A DNA stretch of 64,000 bases, taken from NCBI GenBank assembly GCA_964403585.1, contig CAYOFQ010000001.1, positions 12,456 through 76,455 on the forward strand, read 5' to 3'. The position numbers and the translations under genes were made by a program. Positions 1-59,590 of the stretch are shown piece after piece. The notes under the pieces are model-generated. The model had not been told where the DNA came from and searched no databases. It was given only the letters and a program-made list of their open reading frames with translations. This stretch comes from an uncultured Gammaproteobacteria bacterium. Its GTDB lineage: Bacteria > Patescibacteriota > Microgenomatia > JALYQM01. How positions within the stretch are numbered: the first letter of the stretch is position 1; every line of letters begins with the position of its first letter.

Positions 1-1640
1 CGCAAAGCAAGCAACTGGACGGCGGTATCCACCCGGGGCCTATAAGCAGCTGCCCGCTCCCAAAGTACTTCCTGAACATGCTGCTCTTGAGCTTGCCGCA
101 TCATCCGGTTACGCCGACCGGTAAGTTCAGGGAGGCATAAATCCCATCCGCAATCCACATATGGACAGCACGTCCCCATCTCTTTTTTATAGACAAATCC
201 CCGTCCGCAACCACCCCGCGAATAAGGACATATAATCCAGGCACCTTCCTTTTTCTCTCCGGGGGTGACACTTACTGCTATCGCTTCAGACTCACTAAGC
301 GCTGCTAAGCTCGCAACCACACTCCCCATAACCTGGCACACACTCCCCTTACTTCTCCCGTCAACTGCCTGACCATACGACCTCCGGGCTCTTTTTTCGT
401 CTGCAGCCGTTTTGACTTTCCCTTGCTTTTTATCGTTTTCAATCATTAAATCCTCATACCAGCGCTTGGCTTCATTTTCAAATCCATAGAGCGCCTGCCA
501 CAAGTCCTGCTCAGTTGCTCCTTCCTTGAGCAATTGGACAAAGTACTTTCGACTGTGTAACAAGGCGTTATGAAAACGGTCCACCAGCTCTTTGTCTTTA
601 AGCCGGGTTTCAATAAGCTCAATTTGTCGCCTCCAGGCTCCCCGGGTAAACCCCTTCATAAAAAACGCCTTTTTAAACAAAATCTCTTCTGTTTCTTCAA
701 CACACGCCTCCAACGCTTCAATTGAGTCTGCACTGAAGGTAGTTGAAAAAACTACGCTCATCAGATCTACATCACTCGGATTCCAGCGCATCGCATGGAT
801 ACGATGATAATGAGGGTCATCAGGATGAATGATATGCTTAGCCAACCGGCGATAATGTTCTCGGGTAAATTCGCCAATATGCGTCACCGCCCGAACCTCC
901 ACACAATTTTGATCCACTGCTTTGGCAGCATACTCATAAAGCAGGGTCCGCGTACCATAGCCCACTTTCTGTGCCGCAGCCGTCCTCCGGGGTGGTGCAC
1001 TGATCAGCACGTCCACCCTACCTTGCGCCTGCTCGTTAGAATCATTCAGTAAGGACAACCATCGGTCAAACATGTCGTTTGCAGTACGGAGGTAAATCCA
1101 GTCACGCAATTCCAGACTTTCCGGCATAACTTGAATTGCCCGCAGGTAACTAATGCGCACGTCTTCTCGTGACCATGCAGCGGCAAATGATTCCCCCTGG
1201 TGTTCCACAGCATCAAAAAACACCAACTTAGTTTCGCCCGTCTCCGGATGTCGCAGTACCTTGTGGCCAAACCGTGACGTACCACCGAGTACAAACTCTT
1301 CAGCCAAAGTACGCAAATTAGTCTCAACAATATTTTCAACTTCTTTAACACGGTTCCAATCCCCGGTAGTTGCTGCATATCGCATCGCATCTCGCATACG
1401 GACTTGTTCTGCTTTAACGTTACAAAATCGGGCAAAACCTTTTTTGGGCGGCGATACTTTTGGTTGTTCAATCGCTACCGCATTTAAATACTCCGCGGCA
1501 ACGCGTCGATAGGTCCGGATATCCCGCAAATCCACTCTGCTTGCTTCACGCAAAAAAGCAGCAAAACGCCGGTCAAATAGTCCTTGTTGCAATTGCTCAT
1601 GATCAACGGGAATTGTAGATTTGAATTGCTCGGAATCCAA
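1..1640 (-). CDS. Hypothetical protein with a central GNAT-like acetyltransferase motif and a Cys-rich C-terminal segment; partial, N-terminal ~545 aa, continues past the window start
   Basis: Manual reverse-complement translation gives one uninterrupted frame from about 1640 down to position 1. It is absent from the ORF track only because no stop lies in the window. It contains a GNAT motif-A-like stretch (RVDVLISAPPRRTAAAQKVGYGTRTLLYEYA) and a Cys-rich segment (ICPYSRGGCGRGF...CCPYVDCGWDLC). The only plausible start is TTG at 1640-1638, 4 nt after GAGGAGG; the first in-frame ATG is about 80 codons in. Confidence 0.5.
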   Translation of the reverse strand, partial: MDSEQFKSTIPVDHEQLQQGLFDRRFAAFLREASRVDLRDIRTYRRVAAEYLNAVAIEQPKVSPPKKGFARFCNVKAEQVRMRDAMRYAATTGDWNRVKEVENIVETNLRTLAEEFVLGGTSRFGHKVLRHPETGETKLVFFDAVEHQGESFAAAWSREDVRISYLRAIQVMPESLELRDWIYLRTANDMFDRWLSLLNDSNEQAQGRVDVLISAPPRRTAAAQKVGYGTRTLLYEYAAKAVDQNCVEVRAVTHIGEFTREHYRRLAKHIIHPDDPHYHRIHAMRWNPSDVDLMSVVFSTTFSADSIEALEACVEETEEILFKKAFFMKGFTRGAWRRQIELIETRLKDKELVDRFHNALLHSRKYFVQLLKEGATEQDLWQALYGFENEAKRWYEDLMIENDKKQGKVKTAADEKRARRSYGQAVDGRSKGSVCQVMGSVVASLAALSESEAIAVSVTPGEKKEGAWIICPYSRGGCGRGFVYKKEMGTCCPYVDCGWDLCLPELTGRRNRMMRQAQEQHVQEVLWERAAAYRPRVDTAVQLLAL

Positions 1641-1901
1641 AAAACCTCCTCAAGAATAATCACTCCCAAGAAGGCTACGTAAAATTAAGGAAATAAGAAA
1701 TATATTCCTGCTCGGGATGAATAACTTTTTGTCTGTTTTCTGACTTTACAGTAGCGGCACTGTCCCGGAATTCCACCGGAGTTACCAAAACAAAAAGAAT
1801 GTATATGCAAGGTATTAAATTTCTCGATTATTTGCAAGAAGAAATACCTGTCCAAAATTACCTATTTTTTTTAAACCAATTTTGATATAGTACAGATAGC
1901 T

Positions 1902-4900
1902 ATGAACCGTGATCTCGAGCGATTACAATACATTTTACAGCAACTCTCCCAAACCCTAGAAGAACTTCCTGCCGATGATTTTATCAAAACACGCAATGAT
2001 CGTCTTGCTATCTACCAGCAATTAAAAGACAAATACCCGGAACTGGTTAAAAGACTTGAAGACGAACCAAATGGCAGTAAAGCCTTTGAAAGAGGGGTCA
2101 TTGTCGACCTCATTTCAGCCATTGCAACCGATCTTAACAAACCGGTTTGGACAGCAATACCTACCAACCGCGACGAACTGATCAAAGAATATATCGATTC
2201 TCTCGAAGCATCACCAACCCAGAGCAGCGTTGCGCAATCCTACCAACGGGTAATGCAAGCTAGAAAACCCGGACAAACTTCTTTCCACCAGGCCTCCAAC
2301 GCGTTTGATGAAATCTACGATTCCACACAAAAGATAATCAATCCGGAAAACGTGCAATTCCCTGCCGATCATAGCGATCGTGCCCGTGATAATAAAGTAG
2401 TTGCGGATCAACTATCGACACGAATCGCCGAAATAGTTGCAGAAAACTCGTTTGGTGATCCGGAAGAACGTGCCGACACCATTGAAGAAGAAATTAACGA
2501 AGCCTATCGACAAATGTATAACGTCTCGGGCGTTACGAAAAGGCACCAGGAAGTTATTCGCCGTGAAGCGGAACGACTTGCCGCACTACCTGTTGAAACT
2601 CCGGAAATACCGTCATCAGGAAACGCCCTCACTGATGAAATCGCCAAAAAAATTGCCACTGTGACCATTGGTCAACAGGTTACTCCCGAACAAATTGCTG
2701 AAACTGCACAGGCAATAACTCCGCAAGTTCAGGCAGCAATAAATAATCCCGCAACCGACAAAACGCCTGATCAACAGGTTGCCGAAGTAATTCGCCAGGG
2801 GGTAGAGCAAACTATCGCTCCACTCGTTGATTCACCGGCAATAGATAAATACCTGCGTACAAGTACTAATTCATTTGTAGACATCCAGTCAGTTGAAAAC
2901 TTCCGTGAAGAACTTCCTCAAGCCGTCCAGCAAACTGCCTATCAGTCGGTGAACGAAGCGGTACAACAGCAACGCGGTATTTCCCCGGAAGCTGTTCAGG
3001 CGTATCAGGATCCGCAAGTCCAACAGGCACTCCAGCGCGCAATCGACACTACTGCTAATACCTTAAAAGTCGCTGCCAATCCTCGCGACAATGCCACCGC
3101 CATTCAGGAAGCCGCTCAGTCCATTATGGCCCAGGAAGTCTATACCTCACTCAAAGACGATCCCAGATACCAGCAGTGGAATCGGGATAAAGCCGGCTAT
3201 GAACAAGTAGCCCCCAGCCTTCAGGAATTAGTTACTATTGCCGCCGGAGGCATGGCCTCAGGATTCATGGATAAACAAGCCGAACATGCGGTCGCGCTAG
3301 CCCAGCGTGATGTAGCGGCCGCACCCCCGGTAGAAGCAGTTAGAAGCACCGCTCGCCAAATCGTCGATTCAGTTAAAGCATCACTTCCATCCGACATCAA
3401 TTTAAGCCGCGATGAAGAACAACAGTTATATAGCAAAGTAGTCAATACTATCGACGACAACACCTACCAGCTCCGGCCTTCCCCCGTCGAAACATTAAAA
3501 GAAAAAATTGCCACCGATATTGAAGAAGTAGTTATTAATGGTCCACAACGAGAAACCCTGGATTTGTCCGGTACACTGCAACAGATTGAACCTCAAATTG
3601 AACCGGCTCTTGGCAGATATAATTTTGAATTGACTAAAGCCGCCGCCGAAAAATCTCTTGACTATCTCGAAGCCCAAGCCAAAGCAGCTTTTCCAGCAGC
3701 CGAAACAGTTTCGATTAAAGCCGAGGACTTCCCTGCTCCACCGGCACCAACTCAGGAAGTTATTGTTACCGGTCGCGGCGAACGGGCAGCAGAAGTCTTT
3801 ACTCGCCCTGCGTCTTTGATTGTTAAGGAAGTTACACCAACGCTCCAGTTAGATGCCCAGGAACAAGCCGATCTCCAGGAACGATTAGAGCTGACGCTTA
3901 CCGGTATGGCTTCAGCGGGCAAAACCCGCCAGGAAATGCAGCAAAGAGTTGCCGAAATAATCGCCGAAAATCCTAAAGGAGTAGATTCGGACACTTTAGA
4001 CGCTGCTTTGAAACATGCCGATTTTATGGCCGAGGGTCAGGCCAAGGTTGGCCGCCGACAATTCAACAAAGTCATGGCCGGTCCGGAAGATGCCAGGGTT
4101 TACGACACCAACGCTGGCCAGGAACCTGCGACCAGTGAACTCGCCGGCAAATATGCCCAATCAATGTTAAATAATATCGATGGCGAATCCGCCAGTACGA
4201 AGTCAATTGTAGATGATGTTGCCAGAACACTGAAACTCGATAACCAGGAACGAAGAACACTCCAGGCACAGTTAGGGGCAGAGTTTAGCGGAATGGTAGC
4301 CGACGGTAGGACGCAACAGGAAATAAAAGAACGTGCTGCTGAAATTGTTTCTGCAATTCACGAAGAAAAATACAAAGAACTTAAAGAAAAAACAAAGCAA
4401 ACTAAGGAAGAAAAAGAGACATTAGAAAAAGCCGAAAAAGCCTTAAAAACAGCATTAGAGCAGGTAAATAATCAGGAACCGCCCGAAAGATCACGTCAAA
4501 TCGCAGGACAATTGATTGATTCGATGCAAAAGCAAGCCGCTTCAGGTGCATGGAAAGACGAACAAGCCCAACGCGAACTTGCTGCCTATGCTGCTCAACG
4601 TGAAGAGTTAATAAGAGCATTCGAAGTTGCCAAAATGAGTGGCGATGTGGCCGAAATGGATACTTTGCACAAGCTAATTATTGATAACGATCGTCACTTC
4701 ATTGCTTCCAACCAGAACACCATGCTTGCTTCCTACTATGACAGTGGTTCAGTCGAAAAGTATCAGAACGAACGCCTGCAAAAAATAGCTGCAGCTAAAG
4801 AAGCATATAAAGAACGCCAGGCAGAAATTCAGCAGCAAATGGACGAGAACCGTATCACAGCTCAGGAAGGCCTTGATGCTTTAAAAAGACTCCATAAAGA

Positions 4901-7900
4901 TAGCTCTGGTGAAATAACCCAAAACTTAATCGAATTGCAAATGCAATTGGATTCACAAGCCATCAAGAAATCCGACGAAGAAAAAATTCTGGCATTACAA
5001 AGAGCATATATTGGATCCAGAGAAGACCAGCGTCGACCCGCAACATCAGGTGAACTAAATGTACTGAAGCGTGGTTTAGAGGAAACCAACTGGTACGACC
5101 GCGGAAATTTCTTAGCCTCAACCACCGATAACGCCACCAGATCAGTTGAAAAACATGTCGGTGATATATTAGAAAAACTTGCTGAGCAGGACCCGTCAAT
5201 AAGATCCAGATTAGCCGGTACAGCATTCAGTGCTATTAAACGCGATACTGCCAGCGCGGTAATGCAGGATTTGGCCGCCACTACGAGTAAATCTGAAGTA
5301 CAGTTTTCTATTCTTTCTACACTAAAAACTACACTTGAGGATAAAGTTACCGAACTTACCGGAAAAAAGGTTAAACTTGATCCGGGATCCACTGCCGGTG
5401 ATCTCTTAGCCAATTCGGCGTCAAAACTCGCCGGAGATAAAAAAGTCCAGGCAGCCGCCGCCATGCAATCAATCATGCCTATCGTCCCCCATATGACCGA
5501 CGAAGTTGAAGAAGGCGATTTATATGGACACCGTGAAGCCATGCGCGAAATGATGGCTCAGGATTACGAAAAAGGCGTTCGTGACATTCAAAAAAATCTT
5601 GATCGGGAGATTAAAAGAGGATTACGAAAATACCGAAAAGCAGCCAGTACTCCCCCACCGGATTCTTCATCAGGAGTAATCATCACCGAAAGAGGAGAAA
5701 AAGCCTCGCAAAGTTTCGACCGAGCAGCAGCATTAATCGTTAAAGAAATAAATCCTACTTTAAACCTCGATATAAGCACTCAATACGAACTTCGTGAACA
5801 AATTGAGCTTTCATTAGTTGGCATGGCTTCAGCAGGAAAATCTCGCGCCGAGATGCGCGCCAAAGTACAAGAATTAGTAACTAAATACGCTGGCAACGTC
5901 TCAGACGATGTCCTAACTGCAGCATTAAAACACGCGGATTTTATGGCCGAAGGCCAAACCAGAGCAGGTCGACGGTTATTTAAAAAAGCCATGGCTGGTC
6001 CGGAAAACCCGCAATCATATGGCAATGATCTCCGCGATCAGGCCATCCAGGGAAGTTTTGACCAGACCGCCAATCGTCTCGCCAGCAAAGCCGCTAAAAC
6101 ATTTTCCATGGATGCTTATGATGAAGGCGAACTAAGACGACAAATATCTGACATGCTTGTCACCATGGCCCGTCAGGGTAAAACACAAGCAGAAATGCAA
6201 AGCAGCATCTCAAACTTGATCCAGCAGACCATTAGCACCACTGAAGGCGGTAAATTCCTCGCCGAAAGAGAACGGGAAAGCAAAATTGTCACCGGTAATC
6301 AGGCAATCTATCTTAGCCGAAAACAAAAGAGAGATCAGTTCTATCGTGAAGATGCCTCCATGTCAATTGCATCCCTTCTCGAAGCTGTACGTTCTGCAAA
6401 TCCAAACATCACTGATGACCAACTCAATGCCATTGCTGAAAACACCATTACCAACACGATGGGTGGACTTAAAATCGTCCCTATTCAAGCCAAAAAAGAT
6501 AATGGCGACCTGATGTTTGATAAAGATGGTCAGCCGGTTTATGTGACCAACGGGAAAGATGCTGATGGCAATGACCTGATTGAATATAAACTGGAAGAAG
6601 GCAGTAGTGTTTTCGGTGTCAACGGTATCATGGGCCTCTCAAAAACCCAGCTCCGTATGATGGCGAAAATGTCCCCTGCCGAACAACTGGAATACCTTTC
6701 CAAATTTGATGAGCTGCGACGACAGCAAATATTTAGCTCTTTATCCATCTCCTTAAAACACGAATTAATGCAATTTGGAGTGTGGACTCCTCAAATGGAG
6801 AAAAAACTCAACAGTCTACGCTTGAAAGATTTTTACGACCGCGACCAACAAGAAAGTTATATTAATAGCGCCATCGCCGATGCTCAAAACAAAGTTGGTC
6901 GACCATTAACCAATTCGGAAATTGCCCAAATCCGAGCAGAAATGAGCGCTAAATTAAATAAGAAGATGTCCGTTCAGGATGCTATCGCCTTCCACATGGA
7001 GCGCGGGTATTCCCTTGACCACTTTGTTAAACAATTCCGCGAAGATACGTTAAGGAAAATGCGCAACAACCGCGAAGATGAAGCATCCTTCTATGACTTA
7101 TCTCGAGCAAGAAACTCATTTAGTAATAATATCAACACCATTGAAGCATTACTCGATCCAAGATTTGCCCAGAAATATGCCCGCCGCAAAGTAAGAGCGT
7201 ATAAACGGGATGCTCAAAAATTCATACTTGGCGCCGTTGGAATCGATAAAGACTCTTCCTGGACTGCCTGGTTTGGCAGTATGGTAAACGGCACCTTTCA
7301 GCAAAAAATGATTGGCCATGAAAAAAATCTCGCCGCACTCTCTAAAAAATACAAAATGGATGTGGCTCAAATTGCCAAAACTGGAATCAAACCGAAAAAT
7401 ATATCGTTATTTAAGAGTTTAGAATTAGACCGAGCTATTCGCTCCCAACGCGGCTTAGACGCCATCAAAAAAGCCCGCGAAGCCAACCCGCGACTCGCAT
7501 TCCTCTTCGATAAACGCGCGCAACGCATGCAAAGTAATAAATATGAATTTTCTGCCGAATTGTTCGAAACCCTCCTCCACGGTTCAGCAGGAATTAAAGC
7601 GCTTCCTGGAGTTGTCTCCAGTAGATTAATGAATGCAACCATCAACAAAATACTTACCGAGGGCAAAGGTTTCCGTAACTTTTTTGTCTACGATCGCAAA
7701 AGCAGGCAAATTCTCTTTACTCCCTATGAAGAACTAAAAATGAAGCGCGATGAAGCAGTGAAACAGCTCAAGGAAGCAGCGTGGAATTCACGGCCAATGA
7801 TGTATGCGCGCGAACAGGGAGATAAAGTTAAAGAATACGCTAAAGATCAATTTAAGAAATATGTTTGGGATTCAAAGCCGGTCAAAGCAGTTAGAAATCG

Positions 7901-10544
7901 TGTCAAAATGGCCGTTGCCAAAGTGGCCGGTAATGCCGTAGTTAAAGGTATACAAAGTTTAGCTACTAAAATAGCCGCTCGACTAACCCTAGAAGGTATT
8001 CTTGCTGTACTCCCTACCGGTGTAACCCAGGTTGCCGCTTTAATATTGGCAATCGACACAGCTTTAAGTTCAATACCAATTGTTAATATTATCTATGGTG
8101 CTATAAAATTCGTTGTACTTACACCTTTACGCTGGCTTTGGAAGTTAATCAAGATCATCGCCGCCATCGAAGCGTTACTGGCACTCTACGCGATATATCG
8201 CCTTGCGATGTTTGCTGTTCAATTATTGCATGCCGTTGCATCGGTGGCCGCTATTGGAGGCGCCGCTGGAACAATAACAGGATTTCTTTTAGGTGGAGTC
8301 CCCGGCGCATTTCTCGGCGGTATTATTGGCTGGGGCGCTGGTGCAATCGCCGGCACTGTCTTCCAGGCAGGAAAATTCTTATTCGGCAAATTAACTGGAG
8401 CACTCCAGGGAGGCGTTGCTATTGGAACCGGCGGAGCACTCGGTGCTCTTATGCCGGGATGGTTAAGTGGTTTCCTTTCAGGTGGCGTATCCGCACTTTC
8501 CTTTGGATTATTCAGTGTCCCGGCAGCCTTACTTAACGTTGCCGTTGCCTCAACCAGTGCTATCGCCGGATGGCTCACTTCCATGGGTGCGGCACAAGCA
8601 CTCGCAGTAGTATCCACGGGAGCCGCTATCGGCTTAACTGCACTTTTCAGCCCTGCATATATCACTGCCGTGATGGAATCGCTGCGTAAACCACTGGATA
8701 AAGCAGTGGGCGAATTAGCTACTTTCTCTTATCCCCTGCAGGTGACCAAAATCGCAGATAAAACTAAAGTTAACCAAAACGGTGAACAAATTAAATATAC
8801 GATCACGGTCAGTGGTCCTGCTTGTAGCCCAACTCTAACAGTAACAGATAAATTACCGGATACCCTCACCTTTGATCCATCTGTTCCACCTTCATTTGGA
8901 ACTCCACTCGATCCGTTAGTAGACAGCATCACACCACCAACTGGGCCAGACGCCAATAATACCTTAACCTGGACAATTAAATTGAAGCCTACAGCCGGCG
9001 AGTCCTGTAATGCTGCCCAAATAGATACCGGAGCAAACATCAGTATTCTGGACCCCAATAAGAACTTAGTCAGCTTGGCAGATATGCAGGCATTATTAGC
9101 AGCCTATCCAGGTGGATCATTCAAACCAATGAAGGATACCGCCCAATACTTTATTGATGGACAACAAAAATATGGAATTAATCCTCTCTTTGTTGCCGGA
9201 ATCGCCGCCTTCGAATCAACCATGGGAATCGGTGGAATTGGACGCCCTCCAAATCAGGCAGGTACCTCCGGTTGTTATAATGCCACCAACCTGAAATCAC
9301 CTAACACAAATATTCCTCAAAAATATGGCGGCACACGAGACTGTACCAACCCGGATTTCTGGAGATTCCCCAGCTATGAAGCCAACCTGGCCGCAACCTA
9401 CGAATGGATCCAAACCTATCATGTAAATAAAGGTGAAACCGATGTTGATTCCATCATGGCTCGGTATCAGGGCACGGATGACTTACGTAACACCGAAGTA
9501 GCCATCATTAAATGTACTATGAAAACTAAACGAGTTTGTTCTGATGGATCTGGCGGTGGTGGTGGCACTACTGCCCCAACCTTTACCGCAACCTTAACCT
9601 TTGCCGGCATCGCCAATGCACCAAAGTCAGGCAATGGACCAAATGGTGATGGCTGTATCGTCAATACAGTTACAGCACAGCTCGGAAGCTCAGGCGATGT
9701 ACTTACCTCAACAGGTGGAGCAACTACTGCTGTCGGTCCGGCAAAATGTAATGAATTACAATCATTACCTCAGGGAACCATTGCCGAAGCCAAAGCGTTT
9801 ATGTGTTCCCATCCAACTATCAAAATATGTCCAACAGTCGGTACTAAATACCCGCCTAACTCAGACTGGACACGTGAGCAACTTGAAGCATTGTGGACTG
9901 TTGCGCAAAAAGTCTATCAGGCTGAACCGTATCGCAGCTACGCTGTTGGAAACTATGGAATCGAAGTACAACGCAGCCGCTGCTACATCTACTTTAGTGC
10001 AGTGAACTGTCCTCCAACCGGTGCCGACGGAAAATCCGATAATACACAGGGGTTCAATCAAGGTGTTGATGCCAGCTTCGCAACAATGCAATTCTCAGCA
10101 GGCGTCACACCGAAAGTAGTATTAATTATGAACGGCATCGGTAGCATTAACGGGAACAACGACATACTACAATACCTTTATGCCCACGAAATTGCCCACT
10201 CCGCACAAAAAGGTACCGCCAGTGGCGGTATCGGTGACCGCACCAGAAATCCAGCCAACCAACCGGTACTGGCTCTGAACGAAGTTGTCAGCTTATACGG
10301 AGCACCTACAACCTATTGTATCTCTACTGGTGGACGTTTGCGCTGCGGAAGTGGCCTTCCCTTTGAAAATAACGCTGACGCAATCTCCTACTACATGACC
10401 AACGGTGAGGTTGGCGGTAACTATCGCGCCTGGACCGGTAACACCAACAATTTGAAAACTGATCATCCAAACACCTATAATGCTCTCATGAATGGTTTCT
10501 TTGCTACCGGAGCAAGTGGAGGTCCGCAAGAATATGGCCCTTAA
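1902..10544 (+). CDS. Giant 2880-aa multidomain surface/membrane protein: ~2000-aa charged helical region with internal repeats, glycine-zipper TM region, DUF11-like domain, FlgJ-like glucosaminidase domain, poly-Gly linker, Cys-containing C-terminal domain with HExxH
   Basis: A single open frame of 8.6 kb. Motifs read in the translation: GxxxG-rich hydrophobic block (AIGGAAGTITGFLLGGVPGAFLGGIIGWGAGAIAG...), a DUF11-like stretch (GEQIKYTITVSGPACSPTLTVTDKLPDTLTF), a glucosaminidase-like stretch (QKYGINPLFVAGIAAFESTMG ... FPSYEANLAATYEWI), and HEIAH near the C-terminus. Confidence 0.85.
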   Translation: MNRDLERLQYILQQLSQTLEELPADDFIKTRNDRLAIYQQLKDKYPELVKRLEDEPNGSKAFERGVIVDLISAIATDLNKPVWTAIPTNRDELIKEYIDSLEASPTQSSVAQSYQRVMQARKPGQTSFHQASNAFDEIYDSTQKIINPENVQFPADHSDRARDNKVVADQLSTRIAEIVAENSFGDPEERADTIEEEINEAYRQMYNVSGVTKRHQEVIRREAERLAALPVETPEIPSSGNALTDEIAKKIATVTIGQQVTPEQIAETAQAITPQVQAAINNPATDKTPDQQVAEVIRQGVEQTIAPLVDSPAIDKYLRTSTNSFVDIQSVENFREELPQAVQQTAYQSVNEAVQQQRGISPEAVQAYQDPQVQQALQRAIDTTANTLKVAANPRDNATAIQEAAQSIMAQEVYTSLKDDPRYQQWNRDKAGYEQVAPSLQELVTIAAGGMASGFMDKQAEHAVALAQRDVAAAPPVEAVRSTARQIVDSVKASLPSDINLSRDEEQQLYSKVVNTIDDNTYQLRPSPVETLKEKIATDIEEVVINGPQRETLDLSGTLQQIEPQIEPALGRYNFELTKAAAEKSLDYLEAQAKAAFPAAETVSIKAEDFPAPPAPTQEVIVTGRGERAAEVFTRPASLIVKEVTPTLQLDAQEQADLQERLELTLTGMASAGKTRQEMQQRVAEIIAENPKGVDSDTLDAALKHADFMAEGQAKVGRRQFNKVMAGPEDARVYDTNAGQEPATSELAGKYAQSMLNNIDGESASTKSIVDDVARTLKLDNQERRTLQAQLGAEFSGMVADGRTQQEIKERAAEIVSAIHEEKYKELKEKTKQTKEEKETLEKAEKALKTALEQVNNQEPPERSRQIAGQLIDSMQKQAASGAWKDEQAQRELAAYAAQREELIRAFEVAKMSGDVAEMDTLHKLIIDNDRHFIASNQNTMLASYYDSGSVEKYQNERLQKIAAAKEAYKERQAEIQQQMDENRITAQEGLDALKRLHKDSSGEITQNLIELQMQLDSQAIKKSDEEKILALQRAYIGSREDQRRPATSGELNVLKRGLEETNWYDRGNFLASTTDNATRSVEKHVGDILEKLAEQDPSIRSRLAGTAFSAIKRDTASAVMQDLAATTSKSEVQFSILSTLKTTLEDKVTELTGKKVKLDPGSTAGDLLANSASKLAGDKKVQAAAAMQSIMPIVPHMTDEVEEGDLYGHREAMREMMAQDYEKGVRDIQKNLDREIKRGLRKYRKAASTPPPDSSSGVIITERGEKASQSFDRAAALIVKEINPTLNLDISTQYELREQIELSLVGMASAGKSRAEMRAKVQELVTKYAGNVSDDVLTAALKHADFMAEGQTRAGRRLFKKAMAGPENPQSYGNDLRDQAIQGSFDQTANRLASKAAKTFSMDAYDEGELRRQISDMLVTMARQGKTQAEMQSSISNLIQQTISTTEGGKFLAERERESKIVTGNQAIYLSRKQKRDQFYREDASMSIASLLEAVRSANPNITDDQLNAIAENTITNTMGGLKIVPIQAKKDNGDLMFDKDGQPVYVTNGKDADGNDLIEYKLEEGSSVFGVNGIMGLSKTQLRMMAKMSPAEQLEYLSKFDELRRQQIFSSLSISLKHELMQFGVWTPQMEKKLNSLRLKDFYDRDQQESYINSAIADAQNKVGRPLTNSEIAQIRAEMSAKLNKKMSVQDAIAFHMERGYSLDHFVKQFREDTLRKMRNNREDEASFYDLSRARNSFSNNINTIEALLDPRFAQKYARRKVRAYKRDAQKFILGAVGIDKDSSWTAWFGSMVNGTFQQKMIGHEKNLAALSKKYKMDVAQIAKTGIKPKNISLFKSLELDRAIRSQRGLDAIKKAREANPRLAFLFDKRAQRMQSNKYEFSAELFETLLHGSAGIKALPGVVSSRLMNATINKILTEGKGFRNFFVYDRKSRQILFTPYEELKMKRDEAVKQLKEAAWNSRPMMYAREQGDKVKEYAKDQFKKYVWDSKPVKAVRNRVKMAVAKVAGNAVVKGIQSLATKIAARLTLEGILAVLPTGVTQVAALILAIDTALSSIPIVNIIYGAIKFVVLTPLRWLWKLIKIIAAIEALLALYAIYRLAMFAVQLLHAVASVAAIGGAAGTITGFLLGGVPGAFLGGIIGWGAGAIAGTVFQAGKFLFGKLTGALQGGVAIGTGGALGALMPGWLSGFLSGGVSALSFGLFSVPAALLNVAVASTSAIAGWLTSMGAAQALAVVSTGAAIGLTALFSPAYITAVMESLRKPLDKAVGELATFSYPLQVTKIADKTKVNQNGEQIKYTITVSGPACSPTLTVTDKLPDTLTFDPSVPPSFGTPLDPLVDSITPPTGPDANNTLTWTIKLKPTAGESCNAAQIDTGANISILDPNKNLVSLADMQALLAAYPGGSFKPMKDTAQYFIDGQQKYGINPLFVAGIAAFESTMGIGGIGRPPNQAGTSGCYNATNLKSPNTNIPQKYGGTRDCTNPDFWRFPSYEANLAATYEWIQTYHVNKGETDVDSIMARYQGTDDLRNTEVAIIKCTMKTKRVCSDGSGGGGGTTAPTFTATLTFAGIANAPKSGNGPNGDGCIVNTVTAQLGSSGDVLTSTGGATTAVGPAKCNELQSLPQGTIAEAKAFMCSHPTIKICPTVGTKYPPNSDWTREQLEALWTVAQKVYQAEPYRSYAVGNYGIEVQRSRCYIYFSAVNCPPTGADGKSDNTQGFNQGVDASFATMQFSAGVTPKVVLIMNGIGSINGNNDILQYLYAHEIAHSAQKGTASGGIGDRTRNPANQPVLALNEVVSLYGAPTTYCISTGGRLRCGSGLPFENNADAISYYMTNGEVGGNYRAWTGNTNNLKTDHPNTYNALMNGFFATGASGGPQEYGP
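3757..4107 (+). repeat. Intragenic ~115-aa repeat unit, copy 1, inside the giant gene (SLIVKEV..LTGMASAGKTRQEM..LKHADFMAEGQAKVGRRQF..AGPED)
   Basis: Protein-level and ~75% nucleotide-level similarity to copy 2 at 5674-6023. Shorter versions of the GM(A/V)xxG(K/R)TxxE(M/I) motif also occur near 4270-4350 and 6130-6230. Confidence 0.7.
5674..6023 (+). repeat. Intragenic ~115-aa repeat unit, copy 2, inside the giant gene
   Basis: ALIVKEINPTLNLD..LVGMASAGKSRAEM..LKHADFMAEGQTRAGRRLF..AGPEN aligns with copy 1. Confidence 0.7.
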
Positions 10545-11175
10545 TAATCTTCGCCAACTGCAACAATATCGGAATACCCTTGTTTTAGGAGTAATATTAC
10601 TCGGTATTGGCATCGTTGCAGCCATCATCTACTTTGATAACCCCCAGCCGGCCGAAACCCCACTCTCTCCAAAACCACAGCTGGTTATCAAAGATAACCC
10701 AACCGAATTACAAGTTGATTGGTCTAAAGTCAAACTGGGAATGTCTCAGGAGTCTATCGAAAAACTAATTGGTAAGCCAAGTGCTGTAAATGAAAACAAC
10801 GGCGCAAAATTTATAGTCTACGTAGCCAATCCTAAAACACCGTTAGCAACTCATGTCATAACACTCAAGAACAATAAAGCAGTGGCCATCAAACGCAATG
10901 TCGACAGTCACAACCAGATCATTACCCGCGAGCAGTATGAAAGAAAATTCGGCAATGCTGAAGTCATTCGGGAACAAAGTGGAAATGAAGTCGAGGCATT
11001 ATATGCGTATAAAATTGCCGACAACGAATATCTGTTGATTGAAGTAGATACACAAAACAACCAGGTGTACAACATTTTAGATGTCGTTGGTGAAGAATAC
11101 GAAAACATCAAGAAAGAAGAGAAATTGGCTAAGGAACAGAGCCAACCGGAAGAACGCGGATTTGAAGCCTTTTAA
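10534..11175 (+). CDS. Hypothetical membrane-anchored protein with a single N-terminal TM helix
   Basis: The ORF track gives 10492-11175. The likely start is ATG 10534 (MALNNLRQ...), preceded by GGAGG, and overlaps the giant gene stop by 11 nt. The TM helix is LVLGVILLGIGIVAAIIYF. Confidence 0.6.
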   Translation: MALNNLRQLQQYRNTLVLGVILLGIGIVAAIIYFDNPQPAETPLSPKPQLVIKDNPTELQVDWSKVKLGMSQESIEKLIGKPSAVNENNGAKFIVYVANPKTPLATHVITLKNNKAVAIKRNVDSHNQIITREQYERKFGNAEVIREQSGNEVEALYAYKIADNEYLLIEVDTQNNQVYNILDVVGEEYENIKKEEKLAKEQSQPEERGFEAF

Positions 11176-11495
11176 AGTATTCCCGACCAGTAACGAACTT
11201 TCTTAATAACCCCCTTACCGAGTATTTCGTGCAAACAAAATACCAGCTTACGCTCCTTCATCCGAACCTCATGCCCCCAAACGGAAGAAGCCACAGCTAA
11301 AGTGAGTACACCATCTTTAAAAGATTTCGCCCGTACATTTCCCACCGCTTTTTCACCAAGAATTTTTCCAATCTCCTTTTGCACAACCTCCACCACCCGC
11401 GCCGCATCCATAGCTGCCGGATCACCCGAACGTTCAGCAACTGCAGATAACAAATCTGAAACTTTAACAAAAGACATAGTAGGATTATACGTCAT
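11172..11495 (-). CDS. DUF721-family protein (small conserved protein usually found downstream of dnaN/recF)
   Basis: The C-terminal pattern DGVLTLAVASSVWGHEVRMKERKLVFCLHEILGKGVIKKVRYW matches the DUF721 consensus (dGtLtvevdspawaqeLs...I.frv). It sits downstream of dnaN and shares an overlapping TTAA stop with the upstream convergent gene. Confidence 0.65.
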   Translation of the reverse strand: MTYNPTMSFVKVSDLLSAVAERSGDPAAMDAARVVEVVQKEIGKILGEKAVGNVRAKSFKDGVLTLAVASSVWGHEVRMKERKLVFCLHEILGKGVIKKVRYWSGIL

Positions 11496-11692: not shown

Positions 11693-12817
11693 TTAATCCA
11701 CCAGCACCGGCATAATCACATGCAGATATTCCGATACCTCAGGTATTCGCCAAACACCCGGCTGATTCGAACCATTCATCTCAAAAACTACATCCGAACT
11801 CTTTATTTTTCCCAAAAATTCCAATAAATAACGACTATTGAAAGCAATCGTATTTGCGCTGCCTTCAATAGTTCCATTTACTTCACCGCTAAATTCTCCA
11901 ACCTGCTCAGTGGCGCTGGAAAGGCGCACCACACCGGCCGAAGGATCTATTACGGTTTTTAGTATCGATGCACCGCTACGGGCAAATAAAGAGGCTGTAC
12001 GGACAGTTCTAAGTAACTCATCCGATTTAAAAATTACCCGGGTAGCATAACTTTTAGGAATAATTTTATTGTACGGAGGAAAAGTACCTTCCAGAATTCT
12101 GGTCATAAACAAATTACCGTCAGGGAGTTTAAAAATTAACTGAGTACCTTCTTTAGACAAACCGCATTCAATATTTCCCGCATTTTCCCCGCTATATTCC
12201 CGCAACACTTTTCCTACCTCATTCAGGACTTTAGCACCTAATACTACTGCAAAATTCTTATCCAGAACCTCGGAACTGAATTTTTCCACCGACAAACGAA
12301 AACCGTCAGTAGCAGCCATCTCCATTTGACCGCTTTCAACACGTAAGGAAATACCGGTTAAAATCGCCCGGGCCTCATCACTACTCGCGGCAAAGGACAC
12401 TCTGTCGATCGCATCAACCAGCTGTCTTGTCGGCAAAGTATAGCGAGTCGGTTGCATATCAAAGGAAAGTTCCGGATATTCCTCAGAAAAAATACCGGTA
12501 AAATCAGACTTTGTCTTACCTTCAACAATTTTCAAAAGTTGTTCGGTAGTTTCGATAACTAATACACCTGCCGGCAAATTAAGAACAAAATCGGTAAGAA
12601 GCTTTGCTGGAGCAACAAAGAAACCGTCTTCACCACCGTTAACTTCCAGAACAACCCGTAACGCAACTTCCGTATTATTTCCAATCAGAGTTAACTTATT
12701 TCCTTCAAGATCCATCAATACCCCGGATAAAACGGGCAACGTAGTCCGCGTAGCAATACCACGGCCCACCAAACTTAAAGCTCGGGCAAATTGGTCCTGT
12801 TGTACTGAAAATTTCAT
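11693..12817 (-). CDS. dnaN: DNA polymerase III beta sliding clamp
   Basis: MKFSVQQDQFARALSLVGRGIA..TLPVLSGVLM... is a typical DnaN N-terminus. Length is 374 aa and the gene lies just downstream of dnaA/oriC. Confidence 0.9.
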   Translation of the reverse strand: MKFSVQQDQFARALSLVGRGIATRTTLPVLSGVLMDLEGNKLTLIGNNTEVALRVVLEVNGGEDGFFVAPAKLLTDFVLNLPAGVLVIETTEQLLKIVEGKTKSDFTGIFSEEYPELSFDMQPTRYTLPTRQLVDAIDRVSFAASSDEARAILTGISLRVESGQMEMAATDGFRLSVEKFSSEVLDKNFAVVLGAKVLNEVGKVLREYSGENAGNIECGLSKEGTQLIFKLPDGNLFMTRILEGTFPPYNKIIPKSYATRVIFKSDELLRTVRTASLFARSGASILKTVIDPSAGVVRLSSATEQVGEFSGEVNGTIEGSANTIAFNSRYLLEFLGKIKSSDVVFEMNGSNQPGVWRIPEVSEYLHVIMPVLVD

Positions 12818-13205
12818 TTACCTCCTCACTTTCTATTATTATGAGAGTTTTCTCATTTAAAGAGAATTTATACGTGTGTAGGTGATACTACACTAAGTGC
12901 TACCAATTGTAAATTTTCTTCTCTTCTGTCTATTATCTTTATTTCTTATATATAAATATATAGTATTCTTAGTAATATACTCTGTGTATATCTGCATAAC
13001 ACGGTTACAGTGAAGCTAGCTTTTTTGTGGAATTAGCCGTTAATCCAACTGTAATAGTCTATCTCCTCTACTCTATCCTATATCATACGTAGTACTTTCG
13101 GATTATATTAGCCTTGATAACTTATACTATTTTGTGGATATCTTTGTGGATTACTTTTTTATTCTGTGGATAACCTACTTTTACTTATCCACACATGACT
13201 AAAAG
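12818..13205. other. Chromosomal replication origin (oriC): AT-rich unwinding region plus a cluster of DnaA boxes between dnaA and dnaN
   Basis: AT-rich stretch at ~12890-12990 (ttatatataaatatatagtattcttagtaatatactctg). DnaA-box-like 9-mers: tgtggaatt ~13027, ttgtggata 13132, tgtggatta 13146, tgtggataa 13165, ttatccaca 13185, ttatccaga 13206, and tgtggataa 13261 just inside the dnaA 3' end. Confidence 0.8.
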
Positions 13206-14657
13206 TTATCCAGATAGCTCCTGTTTTATCAACTGTATTTCACGACGGATTTGTTCATTTGTGGATAACGCCAATTCTATCTGCTTCACTCCATGCATGA
13301 CGGTAGTATGGTCTCTTCCGCCCAGTAACTCCCCTACTCTCTCGAGTGGTAAGCCCATTTCGGAATTAAGAAGATACATGGCAATCTGCCGTGGTATTAC
13401 CAGGTTCTTAGTTCGACGGGTTCCCAGCAGATCAGACTTCTTAATAGCGAAGTGATGGTGGATAACTTGCAAAACACGTTGTGGATTAATGGCATTCCCG
13501 AGGCTGACCGATTGAGTGGACTCTTCACCCCAGGCGGTCCGGACATTTTCCAGTGTCCCGATCCAGCCGTTCGTCTTTAATTTTGAAATTATTTGAAACA
13601 ATTTACCTTGTAATTCTCTGGTATTACTGCTGATACGTGACGCTAAGAAATCTACGGCATTCGGCTCTATATGTTCACCCATATCCTGACATTTAGTCTG
13701 AATAATTGCCACCCGCATTTCATAATCCGGCAAACCTACGTCGACCATCATTCCGCCTTTAAACCGCGAGGACAATCGTTCTTCCAGTTGCGGAATTTCC
13801 TCCGGCGTTCTATCCGAAGTCATGAGCACATGCCCGCCGCGCCCGACAATGTCATTAAATGTATGGAAAAACTCTTCCTGAGTACTGTCTTTCCCGGCTA
13901 TAAACTGAATATCATCTACCAGAATAATGTCACAGGAGCGGTAGCGCTCTCTAAACTTGTCCGTGGATTTAGTTGAAATACTATATATATATTCATTAGT
14001 AAATTTTTCAGATGAAAAATAAAGGATCTTCTTATTTGGGAATTTAGACAACACCGCATTCCCGACTGCCATCATCAAGTGGGTTTTGCCTAACCCAACC
14101 CCGCCATATATAAAAAGCGGATTGTATCCCTTACCCGGATTTTGCGCGACCGCCTGAGAGGCCGCATACGCCACGTTATTACTTTTGCCGACTATAAAGT
14201 TGTCGAAAACCAGATTAGGATTGAGCCCATTAAAAACACTCCCTCCCCCACTCCCTGCCGAAGTAGATACGGAATTTTGACGAACCGGAGGTGCAATATC
14301 ATCAATCTGCATGGTCGTATCTGCATAAACCTCTTCATTCTGCTGTACAAATAGCGGAGCCTGAACCCTATCCTGCTCCGGCCTGGTTCGGGCAGAATCC
14401 TTTATCTTTGCCTCCACAAACACCAGCTCTACTTCCTCAGGATAATATTCCTCAATCATTGAAGGAATCATCCCTTTAAATTTTTTCGTCAGTTCCTGTG
14501 CCGAGAATAAGCTCGACACCCCAATCGTCCAGGTATTACCGTCAACCGACACTACATCGGTATTATGAAAGTGCAATTTATACACCCCCACCGACAAGGC
14601 ACCCTTAATATCTTTTAATACTTTTTTCCAGATAGACTGTGCTTCTTCGAGAGTCAT
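13206..14657 (-). CDS. dnaA: Chromosomal replication initiator protein DnaA
   Basis: Walker A GGVGLGKTHLMMAVGN, an AAA+ domain, and a C-terminal DNA-binding helix-turn-helix region. Classic dnaA-dnaN context. Confidence 0.92.
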   Translation of the reverse strand: MTLEEAQSIWKKVLKDIKGALSVGVYKLHFHNTDVVSVDGNTWTIGVSSLFSAQELTKKFKGMIPSMIEEYYPEEVELVFVEAKIKDSARTRPEQDRVQAPLFVQQNEEVYADTTMQIDDIAPPVRQNSVSTSAGSGGGSVFNGLNPNLVFDNFIVGKSNNVAYAASQAVAQNPGKGYNPLFIYGGVGLGKTHLMMAVGNAVLSKFPNKKILYFSSEKFTNEYIYSISTKSTDKFRERYRSCDIILVDDIQFIAGKDSTQEEFFHTFNDIVGRGGHVLMTSDRTPEEIPQLEERLSSRFKGGMMVDVGLPDYEMRVAIIQTKCQDMGEHIEPNAVDFLASRISSNTRELQGKLFQIISKLKTNGWIGTLENVRTAWGEESTQSVSLGNAINPQRVLQVIHHHFAIKKSDLLGTRRTKNLVIPRQIAMYLLNSEMGLPLERVGELLGGRDHTTVMHGVKQIELALSTNEQIRREIQLIKQELSG

Positions 14658-14845: not shown

Positions 14846-15050
14846 TAGAGCACAACGTAAAGGAAGGCTAATACCAAGATATTAACGTCTTATCCCCAAC
14901 AATACAAGACCAAAAATGAGTCTAAAACCTATAGTTTTTCCACAAAAAAAACACATTATCAACATCGAAAACAACGCCCTGTAGGCACAAAAACTGTGAA
15001 GCGAACACACTAATTGACACAATATCAAAATATACAGTATAATCCCCGTT

Positions 15051-28304: not shown

Positions 28305-30101
28305 TTAGTTATCTTTAGTTCCAACCATTACCACCCGTTGCCAGGCTTTATAATTACTCTTAAAAGTATCGGCAAGATGCTGTTGGCCGTCTTTCATCAC
28401 TTTTCTATTGAATACAACATTGGCACCCCATACAGCATGGTCAACCTCATTTTCCACTCCACGCTTTAATGTAGGATCATCAATTCGCAACTCAGGGGGT
28501 GGGGGAGTCTGGTTCGTTACCACCGGCTTACTTATCTCTACTGTTCTACCATCTTTAACACCGTACAAGTTAAATTCCGCCGACATAGCTTTAGTATCTA
28601 CTTTAGTCTGCAATAATAGATAATTTCCGGTATCATTCTGGAATTTAAAATCCCAGGAAGGGAAGTACACTGCCGCATCAATACCGGGAGCTGAATTCTG
28701 CTCGTAATAATAAACACGGTAAGCATGTTGATGACGCTCTTTAATCGGTAATCCGGCATTTAATACTGCTCGGAATAGTGTCGTCGAAACTTGACATAAA
28801 CCCCCACCTACGCCCGGAACAGTACGACCATTGAGAATAACAAACGCATCCTGGTATCCGGTGGATTTCTCAACTTCGCCCACAACTTTATACATTGAAA
28901 AAGTTTCGCCCGGTGCAATGAGCACCCCATTTAACTTACTGGAAGCCAGGCTTAGGTTATGAATACGTCCTGAAGGAGATCCCTTAAATCGCGAAGTACC
29001 TTGTCCCACTAACTCCTTTATTCCATAATTATTTACTGCGGCAGTAGTAATTGCCGCCTCTTTTGTTTTTACGGGAATATCTATTTCAGCTGGCTTCGTA
29101 GGGTCAAACGCCCGGACAGAAATTTCATTTGTCAATGCTTCAGTATTCAGAGCAAGTCCGGGTTGTGCCGGCTCGAATACGGTCACACGCTCGCCTTCCA
29201 GTTGAAACTTGGCTTCAATAGGTTCACGGTTCATGAGATTCGCTATCTCGGCAGTATAGGAAGCCACCTTATAATCGGTAACAACAACATCCACTCCGGT
29301 ATCCGACTTCTTCAAATCAAGCAGTGAGAACAGCTGATCTCTATTTAAATTCCAGGTGCTACCGGGCAAATAAGTAGACTTAAGTGTAAGTGGACGGGCT
29401 AATGCTACTTGAGCTTTCTGTAATGCCTGCTGACTATTCTCAATAGATATATCCGGTTTCTTATCCGCCATCGGCAGATCAAACGTTGGAGTATCTGACC
29501 GGAAGGCTAGATAGGATTCAAAGTCGCGCAAAGCCGTATCTCGATTAGCTACATACCCGATCTGAGATTGAGATAAATATACTCCTTCTTTGGTCATTCC
29601 TAATTCCGAATTCACAACCGGCTTTTCCAGCGGACGTATTGCATCAGCTAATCTCGAGTCAAAAGTAATTTTATCGTACGCATAAATAGGGGAGAGATTA
29701 ACACCTCCTCGCAATGCCCGTCCGGCATTTCTGAATCTATTATTTAAATCTCCGGAATGACCGATACTGAAAGCAGCATCGGCCGTTTTCTCAATATCAT
29801 AACTGGTATAATAACCAACCTTGCCAAGAGATATCTGAGGTGCACCATTCGAAGGGGTAAACTGTACTGTATGCGCTTCACGGTTTTGAAATTCCTTCCG
29901 GAGTAAAGCTATAGACTCGTCCCGGGATTTTCCGGACAAATCTACTGAACCGATATGTACACCCGGAAGCACTCGATTAGAATAAAAAAGAATCGGGAGT
30001 CCAAGAGCCAAAATAGGCAGACCAATAAAAAAACTGATCAATACAATGACCTGCCATTTCGGCATTTTTTGAAAAAATTTAAAAAAAGATTTCTTTTTCA
30101 T
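28305..30101 (-). CDS. VanW-family protein (N-terminal TM anchor, YoaR-like)
   Basis: GETFSMYKVVG...GY.DAFVILNG...GVGGGLCQVSTTLFRAVLNAGLPIKERHQHAYRVYYY...GIDAAVYFPSWDFKFQNDT is the conserved VanW core. Confidence 0.8.
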   Translation of the reverse strand: MKKKSFFKFFQKMPKWQVIVLISFFIGLPILALGLPILFYSNRVLPGVHIGSVDLSGKSRDESIALLRKEFQNREAHTVQFTPSNGAPQISLGKVGYYTSYDIEKTADAAFSIGHSGDLNNRFRNAGRALRGGVNLSPIYAYDKITFDSRLADAIRPLEKPVVNSELGMTKEGVYLSQSQIGYVANRDTALRDFESYLAFRSDTPTFDLPMADKKPDISIENSQQALQKAQVALARPLTLKSTYLPGSTWNLNRDQLFSLLDLKKSDTGVDVVVTDYKVASYTAEIANLMNREPIEAKFQLEGERVTVFEPAQPGLALNTEALTNEISVRAFDPTKPAEIDIPVKTKEAAITTAAVNNYGIKELVGQGTSRFKGSPSGRIHNLSLASSKLNGVLIAPGETFSMYKVVGEVEKSTGYQDAFVILNGRTVPGVGGGLCQVSTTLFRAVLNAGLPIKERHQHAYRVYYYEQNSAPGIDAAVYFPSWDFKFQNDTGNYLLLQTKVDTKAMSAEFNLYGVKDGRTVEISKPVVTNQTPPPPELRIDDPTLKRGVENEVDHAVWGANVVFNRKVMKDGQQHLADTFKSNYKAWQRVVMVGTKDN

Positions 30102-38403: not shown

Positions 38404-38452
38404 TCTCGGGAAAAACAATGAGGAAGACAGGTGCTAAAACCACCTGTCTTTT

Positions 38453-39976: not shown

Positions 39977-39977
39977 A

Positions 39978-56257: not shown

Positions 56258-56330
56258 GGGCCGCTAGCTCATTTGGTAGAGCGCCTCGTTTGCACCGAGG
56301 AGGTGAGGAGTTCGAGCCTCCTGCGGTCCA
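56258..56330 (+). tRNA. tRNA-Ala (TGC)
   Basis: Acceptor GGGCCGC/GCGGTCC with a G3:U70 pair (the alanine identity element), D arm GCTC..GAGC, anticodon stem CCTCG/CGAGG, loop TTTGCAC, T arm AGGAG-TTCGAGC-CTCCT. Confidence 0.85.
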
Positions 56331-56664
56331 CACACCAGTAAGATGTCTTTATGATGGTGTCAGTGAGTATTTCGGTACTCGCCGCCATCATAAAGCTATC
56401 TTAAATTGACGACCATAGCCTTAACAGGGAGTCAAGCAGATAATAGCTTGCCACTGGTTACGAGCCAGTATTAGTACCTTAACAAGTGAATAGTGAAATA
56501 TATCTCAATTTAAATCTAACAAGGTTTTTTTGAGTGTAATTCCGCATCTGATTTTGTCGCAAGACAAAATCACTCAGACACGTAAGTGTCTGAGTACAAT
56601 GATCAATTTAATATTGATCACCTTTGAAGATAAAAAAATATAAAATGTAAATGTTAAAAACTAC

Positions 56665-59590
<2,926 letters not shown>

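Follow-up and report, generated by a model that had tools for sequence, protein, structure and literature searches.

The Gram-positive hydrolases of the VirB1 type, which we take to include PrgK of pCF10, TraG of pIP501, CwlT of ICEBs1, TrsG and CD419, are among the closest described counterparts of the gene analysed here, a giant open reading frame (ORF) near the replication origin in a stretch of 64,000 nucleotides, the window, of contig CAYOFQ010000001.1 (assembly GCA_964403585.1). These hydrolases are encoded in type IV secretion system (T4SS) loci, are membrane-anchored, and combine glycan-cleaving and peptidase modules (in part described in PMC12102498). The T4SS of Patescibacteria are MPF-FATA-like, contain arrays of VirB2-like pilins, usually have no relaxase, and often lie next to dnaA/dnaN. 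VirB1 homologues are rare near virB4 in this group, and a 2025 survey proposed that their part is played by other enzymes (PMC12102498). The relaxase-free systems are suspected protein exporters, and in Southlakia epibionticum (Saccharibacteria), the only species examined for this, the T4SS cluster SEML1_0006-0019 is essential for epibiotic growth. Its first gene, SEML1_0006, lies between VirB4 and recF-dnaN-dnaA and encodes a protein of 643 aa with a glycoside hydrolase family 73 domain (GH73, PF01832) and a lysozyme-like domain PF18013; the next gene encodes a small exported protein of ~211 aa (PMC10633639).

We favour, with moderate confidence, the reading of the giant protein as a VirB1-like bifunctional wall hydrolase that is an integral membrane component of a chromosomal, origin-proximal, MPF-FATA-like T4SS locus. 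It resembles the Gram-positive VirB1-type proteins in the T4SS locus, in the anchor on the N-terminal side, and in a probable ectodomain with glycan-cleaving and peptidase modules, and its relatives carry SLT or CHAP-like modules at the same positions. On the other hand, it has GH73 and a new zincin (an HExxH metallopeptidase domain) where those proteins have SLT and CHAP or NlpC-P60, and a polytopic glycine-zipper anchor in place of their single helix. It also adds a probably cytoplasmic extension of ~2,000 aa and an Ig-like stalk of the CLIPPER type, has no sequence homology to them, and is encoded outside the VirB4 operon. SEML1_0006 is similar in GH73, in the placement between VirB4 and dnaN-dnaA, and in the small protein downstream (227 aa here). 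Compared by description, it has PF18013 where the giant protein has the zincin, and no giant N-terminal arm has been reported there.

A T4SS-linked, anchored protein with glycosidase and peptidase is of an already known kind. The initial annotation of the window regarded the domain combination as an undescribed family. This stands in so far as the protein has no Pfam or NCBIfam model and is recorded as hypothetical, but the kind of protein is familiar from Gram-positive conjugation (PMC12102498; PMC10633639). What is new is the zincin family, its pairing with GH73 on a stalk of the CLIPPER type, a polytopic anchor rich in glycine zippers, and the hypervariable arm of 2,000 aa. The gene is a candidate for the wall-opening function absent from most Patescibacterial T4SS loci, and a zincin domain without an existing model marks the T4SS locus near oriC.

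Domains and topology of the giant protein

The giant gene (Table 1) is a single real ORF and, judged from its sequence, encodes a membrane-anchored protein with predicted glycosidase and peptidase cell-wall domains at the outer end. The identical protein of 2,880 aa is encoded on a contig of 1,573,555 bp at NCBI and in the Logan assembly of SRR16481186, two assemblies that possibly come from the same reads. The GC content is even along the gene. The overall architecture seen in the initial annotation, from the charged repeat-bearing part through the membrane block to the Gly5 linker (aa 2549-2553) and the Cys-containing C-terminal domain with HEIAH, was found again, and a cell-wall-cleaving role is a reasonable reading.

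Table 1. Coordinates of the giant gene, its domains and the neighbouring genes in the window
Feature	Residues (aa)	Position (nt)	Strand	Remark
Minus-strand gene, 5' part, 524 aa (605 aa if TTG start ~1634)		1..1397	-	first of three divergent genes
Giant ORF, 2,880 aa + stop	1-2880	1902..10544	+	ATG 1902, stop at 10544
N-terminal head	1-105	1902..2216	+	no signal peptide
Variable charged Cys-free arm	106-1465	2217..6296	+	
Internal repeat, copy 1	613-734	3738..4103	+	
Internal repeat, copy 2	1252-1373	5655..6020	+	
Juxtamembrane region	1466-2024	6297..7973	+	family-conserved; basic close to membrane
Polytopic GxxxG-rich membrane block	2025-2262	7974..8687	+	by hydropathy
DUF11/CLIPPER Ig-like domain	2279-2376	8736..9029	+	
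GH73-like N-acetylglucosaminidase domain	~2392-2545	9075..9536	+	E2438 nt 9213-9215; Y2522 nt 9465-9467
Small beta-rich module past Gly5 linker	2555-2615	9564..9746	+	C2585, C2616 conserved
C-terminal zincin (gluzincin-type)	2616-2880	9747..10541	+	HEIAH nt 10185-10199
Zincin invariant Glu	E2822; E2836	10365-10367; 10407-10409	+	
Partner gene, 227 aa		10492..11175	+	overlaps last 53 nt of giant gene; one N-terminal membrane helix
DciA		11172-11495	-	
dnaN		11693-12817	-	
dnaA		13206-14657	-	

The assignment of the glucosaminidase domain, initially described as FlgJ-like, is based on profile and fold comparison. A profile of ten family members matches the glucosaminidase of a C. difficile endolysin in the PDB (8yxk, E 3.4e-8), followed by 3fi7, 4pi7, 7pj3/4q2w, 7qfu and 3vwo/2zyc (E 2e-3 to 2e-2), a series of GH73 enzymes that includes Auto, AtlE, LytB and FlgJ. 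The domain has the lysozyme-like GH73 fold. E2438 and Y2522 do not vary among ten giant proteins, and the motifs aligned with them in 3fi7 and 8yxk are ALES and KYAP; by its alignment with the catalytic Glu of GH73, E2438 is the predicted catalytic residue. Similarity to the known enzymes (LytB, Auto/Lmo1076, AtlE, FlgJ, endolysin Ecd09610) comprises the profile match, the invariant Glu after a conserved helix and the C-terminal Tyr motif. However, the giant protein scores below the Pfam cut-off, carries an insertion with Cys that separates the catalytic Glu from the Tyr motif, and is identical to these enzymes in 16 % of positions or less.

The possible HExxH metallopeptidase of the initial annotation is supported as a domain assignment. 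The C-terminal 265 aa are modelled with high confidence as a zincin (mean per-residue model confidence, pLDDT, 92.7), with HExxH and the downstream Glu on model helices 138-154 and 205-217. HExxH (here HEIAH, aa 2762-2766) is present in all 29 carriers, and 26 aligned sequences show no variation at H2762, E2763, H2766 and E2822. The last of these belongs to the motif ENxA(D/E), ~55 residues past HExxH. Even with E allowed up to 10, Pfam has no family that matches the region aa 2539-2880, and there is no match to an NCBIfam model or to an existing peptidase model, including ATLF/M34. The domain carries a gluzincin-type signature in a family that has no model. It shares HExxH and the downstream Glu with the M34-type zincins (PPEP-1/2/3, anthrax lethal factor). 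On the other hand, only 12-18 % of positions are identical, conserved Cys pairs and an N-terminal sub-domain are particular to this domain, and it accompanies peptidoglycan hydrolases rather than toxins or adhesin-processing systems. Just before the zincin there is a conserved Pro-rich motif (PGQPLPS, in some proteins PPP; aa ~2617-2625 here), in which one Pro is invariant among the short zincin proteins P0009-P0028. It could be a self-processing site, considered because the nearest structural relatives are Pro-Pro endopeptidases, or a mere linker.

The DUF11 domain (PF01345) scores 26.9 bits with the whole protein and 32.4 bits with the fragment, above the gathering cut-off of 24.6, and is matched in five of ten family members at E <= 0.01. 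Its region has a CnaA-like beta-sandwich fold. DUF11, now named CLIPPER, has a Lys-Asp-Asn isopeptide triad and is typical of the stalks of fibrillar adhesins (PMC12617251). The positions K2283, C2308, D2316 and W2357 are invariant across the family. K2283 and D2316 could correspond to the Lys and Asp of the triad, and no conserved Asn is found in the last strands. The invariant C2308 together with the near-invariant C2369 suggests a disulfide in place of the isopeptide bond. The small beta module between the Gly5 linker and the zincin has three strands in the model and conserved GC(I/V)xN and C columns.

In the part preceding the membrane, the first ~2,000 aa contain 20-36 % D/E/K/R per 200 aa, and the net charge is negative at the start and reaches +22 in aa 1801-2000. 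Identity between the two long repeat copies is 55 % (E 9e-38), and additional sub-repeats of ~50 aa occur at aa 640-688, 769-817, 1279-1327 and 1386-1440. Trp is depleted in the arm as well as Cys. A residue pattern R..Y, P.L, (I/V)P.N..EL..Y is common to the heads of the giant relatives, as judged by eye on a MAFFT alignment of the first 150 aa of ten giants; BLAST did not detect the head. The arm has no detectable similarity to the relatives, even at a DnaA identity of ~85 %. The juxtamembrane region is predicted to be helical at low confidence (pLDDT 37-69) and is collinear by BLAST with P0005, P0014, P0027 and P0021 from aa ~1466-1686 on. It has no relative in the PDB by profile comparison and none in a Pfam scan, and its profile found no match in a word-indexed protein search.

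The membrane block contains 15 GxxxG motifs, against three in the preceding 2,024 aa. Its model is of low confidence (AlphaFold2, aa 1805-2622: mean pLDDT 54.8, below 50 in the block), such that neither the number nor the parity of helices can be read from it. The topology is indicated by other features. The hydrophilic N-terminus has no signal peptide. The last 30 aa upstream of the first membrane helix contain six K/R and no D/E, and the same stretch is basic in every family member. All 14 Cys of the protein lie beyond aa 2308, and there is none in the 2,029 aa preceding the membrane part. In the family, the pre-membrane part is Cys-free in 12 of the 13 members examined (the exception is P0008 with two Cys), and the post-membrane part has 6-18 Cys. 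Finally, in the mid-size relatives with one membrane helix the N-terminal part and the hydrolase part necessarily lie on opposite sides of the membrane. Because of these relatives, the charge and the Cys distribution, and because the hydrolases and CLIPPER belong outside the cell, the arm of ~2,000 aa is most likely cytoplasmic, with only ~620 aa outside. In the locus of P0008, a DsbD_2/NicO-type membrane protein is encoded after the partner gene (L006 10550-11980), which fits with disulfide handling for a Cys-rich ectodomain.

The secretion locus beside the replication origin

To the left of the window are genes for a VirB4-like ATPase (AAA_10, P-loop_TraG, DUF87), two T4SS pilins (PF18895) and a VirB6-like polytopic protein of 509 aa with a weak match to TrbL/VirB6 (PF04610, E 0.013). 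On the Logan contig L004 they lie 7-10 kb upstream of the giant gene. The initial annotation missed the T4SS because these genes are off the left edge of the window. The placement beside oriC was recognised correctly. The giant gene and its partner are followed by DciA, dnaN and dnaA, with DnaA-box clusters at 13133-13268 (three perfect copies) and 14890-14964.

The association of the two systems is conserved. A zincin-bearing gene is found beside dnaN-dnaA in all 13 related loci examined, and it is downstream of VirB4 where the flank suffices. The gene order around giants P0002 and P0005 is the same as here. The shorter flanks of P0003 and P0008 retain the order giant gene, small partner, dnaN, dnaA, and DciA is also recognised at the P0003 locus. 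P0012 directly follows a TraC-like gene and VirB4, and is itself followed by a protein with SLT and M23, dnaN and dnaA. Scans of genomes and metagenomes gave seven further loci, in which the zincin gene is 0.6-2.5 kb from dnaN and, where a flank exists, downstream of PrgI, TraC-like and VirB4 genes. These scans, made with a narrow alignment, yielded few loci. At the locus L007, VirB4 satisfies the NCBIfam equivalog model of the CD1110 conjugation ATPase from Firmicutes. By its gene content, the locus matches the oriC-proximal T4SS of Gram-positive type published for Patescibacteria, and the organism is probably a member of that group. The episymbiotic background initially supposed is likely, and the Patescibacteria-type locus fits with it. 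Two metagenome-assembled genomes with this T4SS/dnaA locus (L008, L009) are titled "uncultured Gammaproteobacteria bacterium", a label that is probably wrong.

The partner of 227 aa has a weak, sub-threshold BamE-like match. Behind every giant relative there is a counterpart of ~210-240 aa, at 29-47 % identity (33-47 % for L002, L005, L006, L007). The role of the partner may be to regulate or inhibit the hydrolase, if Brucella SagA/PhiA is taken as the analogue.

Relatives and their divergence

An exhaustive HMMER search with aa 2270-2880 against 1.84 billion representative proteins found only 35 proteins. In the word-indexed search, the whole protein retrieved only itself and the zincin profile one fragment. 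The family is annotated as hypothetical in public records, and neither it nor the zincin has a Pfam or NCBIfam model. One relative comes from Ca. Levyibacteriota.

Giants of 1,825-3,039 aa, all found in other samples, make up nine of the relatives. Their domains come in the order seen here: a charged N-terminus that has no signal peptide, then the membrane block, DUF11, the GH73-like domain and the small beta module, and last the C-terminal domain. They are collinear with the protein from aa ~1470-1810 to the end. Homologous giant genes do occur next to dnaN-dnaA, a point that the initial annotation had suggested checking. In four mid-size relatives (1,026-1,284 aa) the charged N-terminus is followed by a single membrane helix and then by an ectodomain that has the zincin at its end. 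Weak DUF11 matches were seen in two of these, P0012 and P0016, and SLT in P0016, P0018 and P0020. P0012 can be aligned with the giant protein over the zincin only, and its middle part was read by eye as GH73-like. The remaining relatives are short secreted zincin carriers.

The partners of the zincin in these proteins are informative. It is fused to SLT in P0016, P0018, P0020 and P0023 and to Amidase_2 in P0017 and P0022, in all six above the cut-off. In P0025, a CHAP-like Cys/His domain (E 7e-4, below the cut-off) occupies the position of the zincin. By alignment, P0027 has the same non-zincin C-terminus, with no HExxH and no Pfam match at E <= 0.01. A swap of the peptidase type at one position beside a glycosidase would be the pattern of two-domain wall hydrolases, and the domain company of the zincin points to peptidoglycan as its likely substrate.

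The giant protein diverges far faster than housekeeping proteins. Between this genome and its two closest relatives, the identity is 85-87 % for DnaA, 86 % for DnaN, 78-81 % for YidC and ~96 % for the C-terminus of VirB4 (96 % over the C-terminal 116 residues in the comparison with L007). The ectodomain of the giant protein is 44 % and 28 % identical, the juxtamembrane and membrane parts 21 % or less, or undetectably so, and in the first 1,465 aa no identity is detectable. Along the closest pair, the zincin retains 60-82 %, DUF11 55 %, GH73 10-38 % and the rest 15-23 %. An unalignable arm and an ectodomain at 28-44 %, against DnaA at ~85 % and the VirB4 C-terminus at ~96 %, are the pattern expected of a determinant of partner specificity. 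The rate contrast fits with diversifying selection where the protein meets another organism, but drift in low-complexity sequence could be its cause as well.

Readings of the locus and other features of the window

If the giant protein is a VirB1-like hydrolase, its action can be pictured as follows. About 2,020 aa would lie in the cytoplasm, comprising the head of 105 aa, a fast-evolving, Cys-free repeat arm of ~1,350 aa and a family-specific juxtamembrane region of ~550 aa. The glycine-zipper polytopic anchor would come next, followed outside the membrane by a disulfide-bearing ectodomain of ~620 aa, in which the CLIPPER/DUF11 Ig stalk would keep both enzymes near the membrane. There the GH73-type N-acetylglucosaminidase (E2438) would cleave glycan strands, and the candidate zinc metallopeptidase (H2762, E2763, H2766, E2822) would cleave peptide stems or cross-links. 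The resulting local opening of peptidoglycan would let the channel or pilus of the T4SS pass, as with the Gram-positive VirB1-type hydrolases. For the arm, docking to the ATPase platform or to the neighbouring protein of 1,336 aa is conceivable. The wall that is cut might be that of the cell itself or that of a host. The cell does have its own peptidoglycan, since the window encodes a class A penicillin-binding protein (PBP), an S11 carboxypeptidase and a VanW protein.

VirB1-type proteins are encoded in T4SS clusters, and so is the giant protein here and in the related loci, though outside the VirB4 operon. Of their combination of anchor, glycosidase and peptidase, the domain content is present, and the extracytoplasmic side is indicated by charge, Cys and the single-pass relatives. 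Several observations weigh against this assignment. Three divergently transcribed genes (305, 1,336 and 524 aa) separate the giant gene from the VirB4 operon, and its physical membership in the T4SS is inferred. This copy has no SLT, CHAP or NlpC match and no homology to the SLT/CHAP VirB1 proteins. PF01832 at aa 2415-2524 obtained 18.5-22.3 bits, under the gathering cut-off of 30.2. In the relatives this model is matched in three of ten at E <= 0.01, and the top score (23.0 bits, P0005) is likewise below the cut-off. The nearest structural relatives of the zincin, the PPEPs and lethal factor, cleave proteins and not peptidoglycan. The N-in/C-out orientation follows from indirect arguments, with a membrane block modelled at pLDDT below 50. 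Finally, a simple anchor role leaves unexplained why a cytoplasmic arm is hypervariable between genomes ~85 % identical in DnaA.

The last point bears on a reading that we consider unlikely, in which the adjacent VirB4 machine threads the arm outward, independently of Sec, and the arm or the whole protein is a T4SS substrate. The protein would then be a tethered, exported penetration device: its lytic head would open the wall of a partner, the glycine-zipper block would insert in the partner membrane, and block and arm would enter the partner envelope. Long helices, membrane-active segments and lytic domains are combined in phage T5 Pb2 and in the tape measures of mycobacteriophages, and the long, putatively helical part, the Gly-rich hydrophobic segments and the lytic domains of the giant protein resemble such tape-measure and tail-tip proteins. 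Relative to housekeeping genes, the divergence of the arm and of the membrane block is extremely rapid, and it is this rate contrast that keeps the reading of a partly exported or delivered protein alive. Absence of Cys is expected of an arm exported unfolded, and protein export has been suspected for the relaxase-free Patescibacterial T4SS (PMC10633639). However, the disulfide-rich enzyme domains C-terminal to the membrane block look like an ordinary anchored ectodomain. PHROGs gave no tape-measure match, only a weak endolysin match and one family of unknown function, no relative was found among the 2.9 million viral contigs of IMG/VR, and there are no phage genes in the neighbourhood; on these three grounds a tape-measure or prophage protein proper was rejected. 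If the penetration reading were true, the protein would represent a new class of contact-dependent conduit that sets the host range of episymbiotic bacteria.

Equally doubtful is a housekeeping autolysin or division hydrolase that lies near oriC by coincidence and is independent of the T4SS. Among autolysins, GH73 enzymes and peptidases are frequent, many housekeeping genes are located near oriC, and the giant gene is transcribed separately from VirB4. On the other hand, such an enzyme would hardly be so rare (35 representatives in the 1.84 billion proteins) or diverge so much faster than housekeeping proteins; VirB4, PrgI, TraC-like and pilin genes are present at every locus with enough flank; and a separate set of PBP, carboxypeptidase and VanW is encoded elsewhere in the window.

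The initial annotation saw in the arm a huge extracellular fibre. Here the ~2,000 aa would reach a host, and the protein, anchored by the glycine-zipper block, would be an adhesin and a factor that remodels the host wall. Repeat-bearing, low-complexity, fast-evolving sequence is typical of surface fibres, CLIPPER/DUF11 of the stalks of fibrillar adhesins (PMC12617251), and the ectodomain could act on a host wall. Nevertheless, we think this quite improbable. The N-terminus without signal peptide, the basic residues right before the first membrane helix, the arm with no Cys against 14 at the enzyme end, and the single-pass relatives, which force arm and hydrolases to opposite sides, all contradict it. 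The giant protein also does not show the set of signal peptide, tandem stalk repeats and distal adhesive domain that marks fibrillar adhesins; its DUF11 is one copy, on the C-terminal side, and forms no tandem stalk.

An assembly chimera or a fusion made by a frameshift, named in the initial annotation as a possible refutation, can be practically dismissed: nothing specific favours it beyond the possibly shared reads of the two assemblies, and nine giants of other samples with the same domain order are collinear to the end, the N-terminal head aligns among giants, and the GC content is even.

Two further kinds of giant protein were considered. Extended VirB6 proteins are polytopic T4SS subunits with large hydrophilic domains (PMC12857230). 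The giant protein is similar in being polytopic, in its very large hydrophilic extension and in the T4SS locus. However, its mid-size relatives have a single helix, and a VirB6 fusion was rejected, as the TrbL/VirB6 model (PF04610) has no match in it and hhalign of the membrane block gives a probability of 0.1 % against the family of the VirB6-like neighbour. In predatory Omnitrophota, giant genes have been implicated in cell-wall degradation (bioRxiv 10.1101/2023.11.21.568195). By that description, they likewise are very long genes for wall degradation in an ultrasmall or host-dependent bacterium, but belong to another lineage and are much longer. We know of no T4SS context for them.

None of the three divergent genes matches a Pfam or NCBIfam family. 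A gene for ~1,320-1,390 aa is always present at the same place upstream of the giant gene (L004 3854-7864 on the minus strand; also L002, L005, L007). These neighbours belong to no Pfam or NCBIfam family and are almost unalignable; BLAST found no match between the protein of this genome and those of relatives ~85 % identical in DnaA. The genes for 524/605, 1,336 and 305 aa are preceded by a complete riboswitch-like leader at 1630-1854 on the minus strand, with an AdoCbl-II aptamer at 1796..1726 (41.4 bits, gathering cut-off 36.5). The leader has a promoter-like site at 1854..1827 and a 15-bp hairpin at 1676..1643 that contains GAGGAGG and is followed by TTTTGG and a possible TTG start at ~1634. 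Four relatives lack the leader in the corresponding region.

Elsewhere in the window, the VanW/PG_binding_4 protein is encoded at 28305-30101. A GH8 glycoside hydrolase, a PMT_2 glycosyltransferase and a cellulose-synthase-like GT2 are found together at 36793-41543, which suggests an exopolysaccharide locus. The rRNA genes appear to be unlinked, as tRNA-Ala, 23S and 5S rRNA occupy 56258-60038 with no 16S rRNA in the 6 kb upstream. Two tRNA-Met genes are located at 50219 and 50575.

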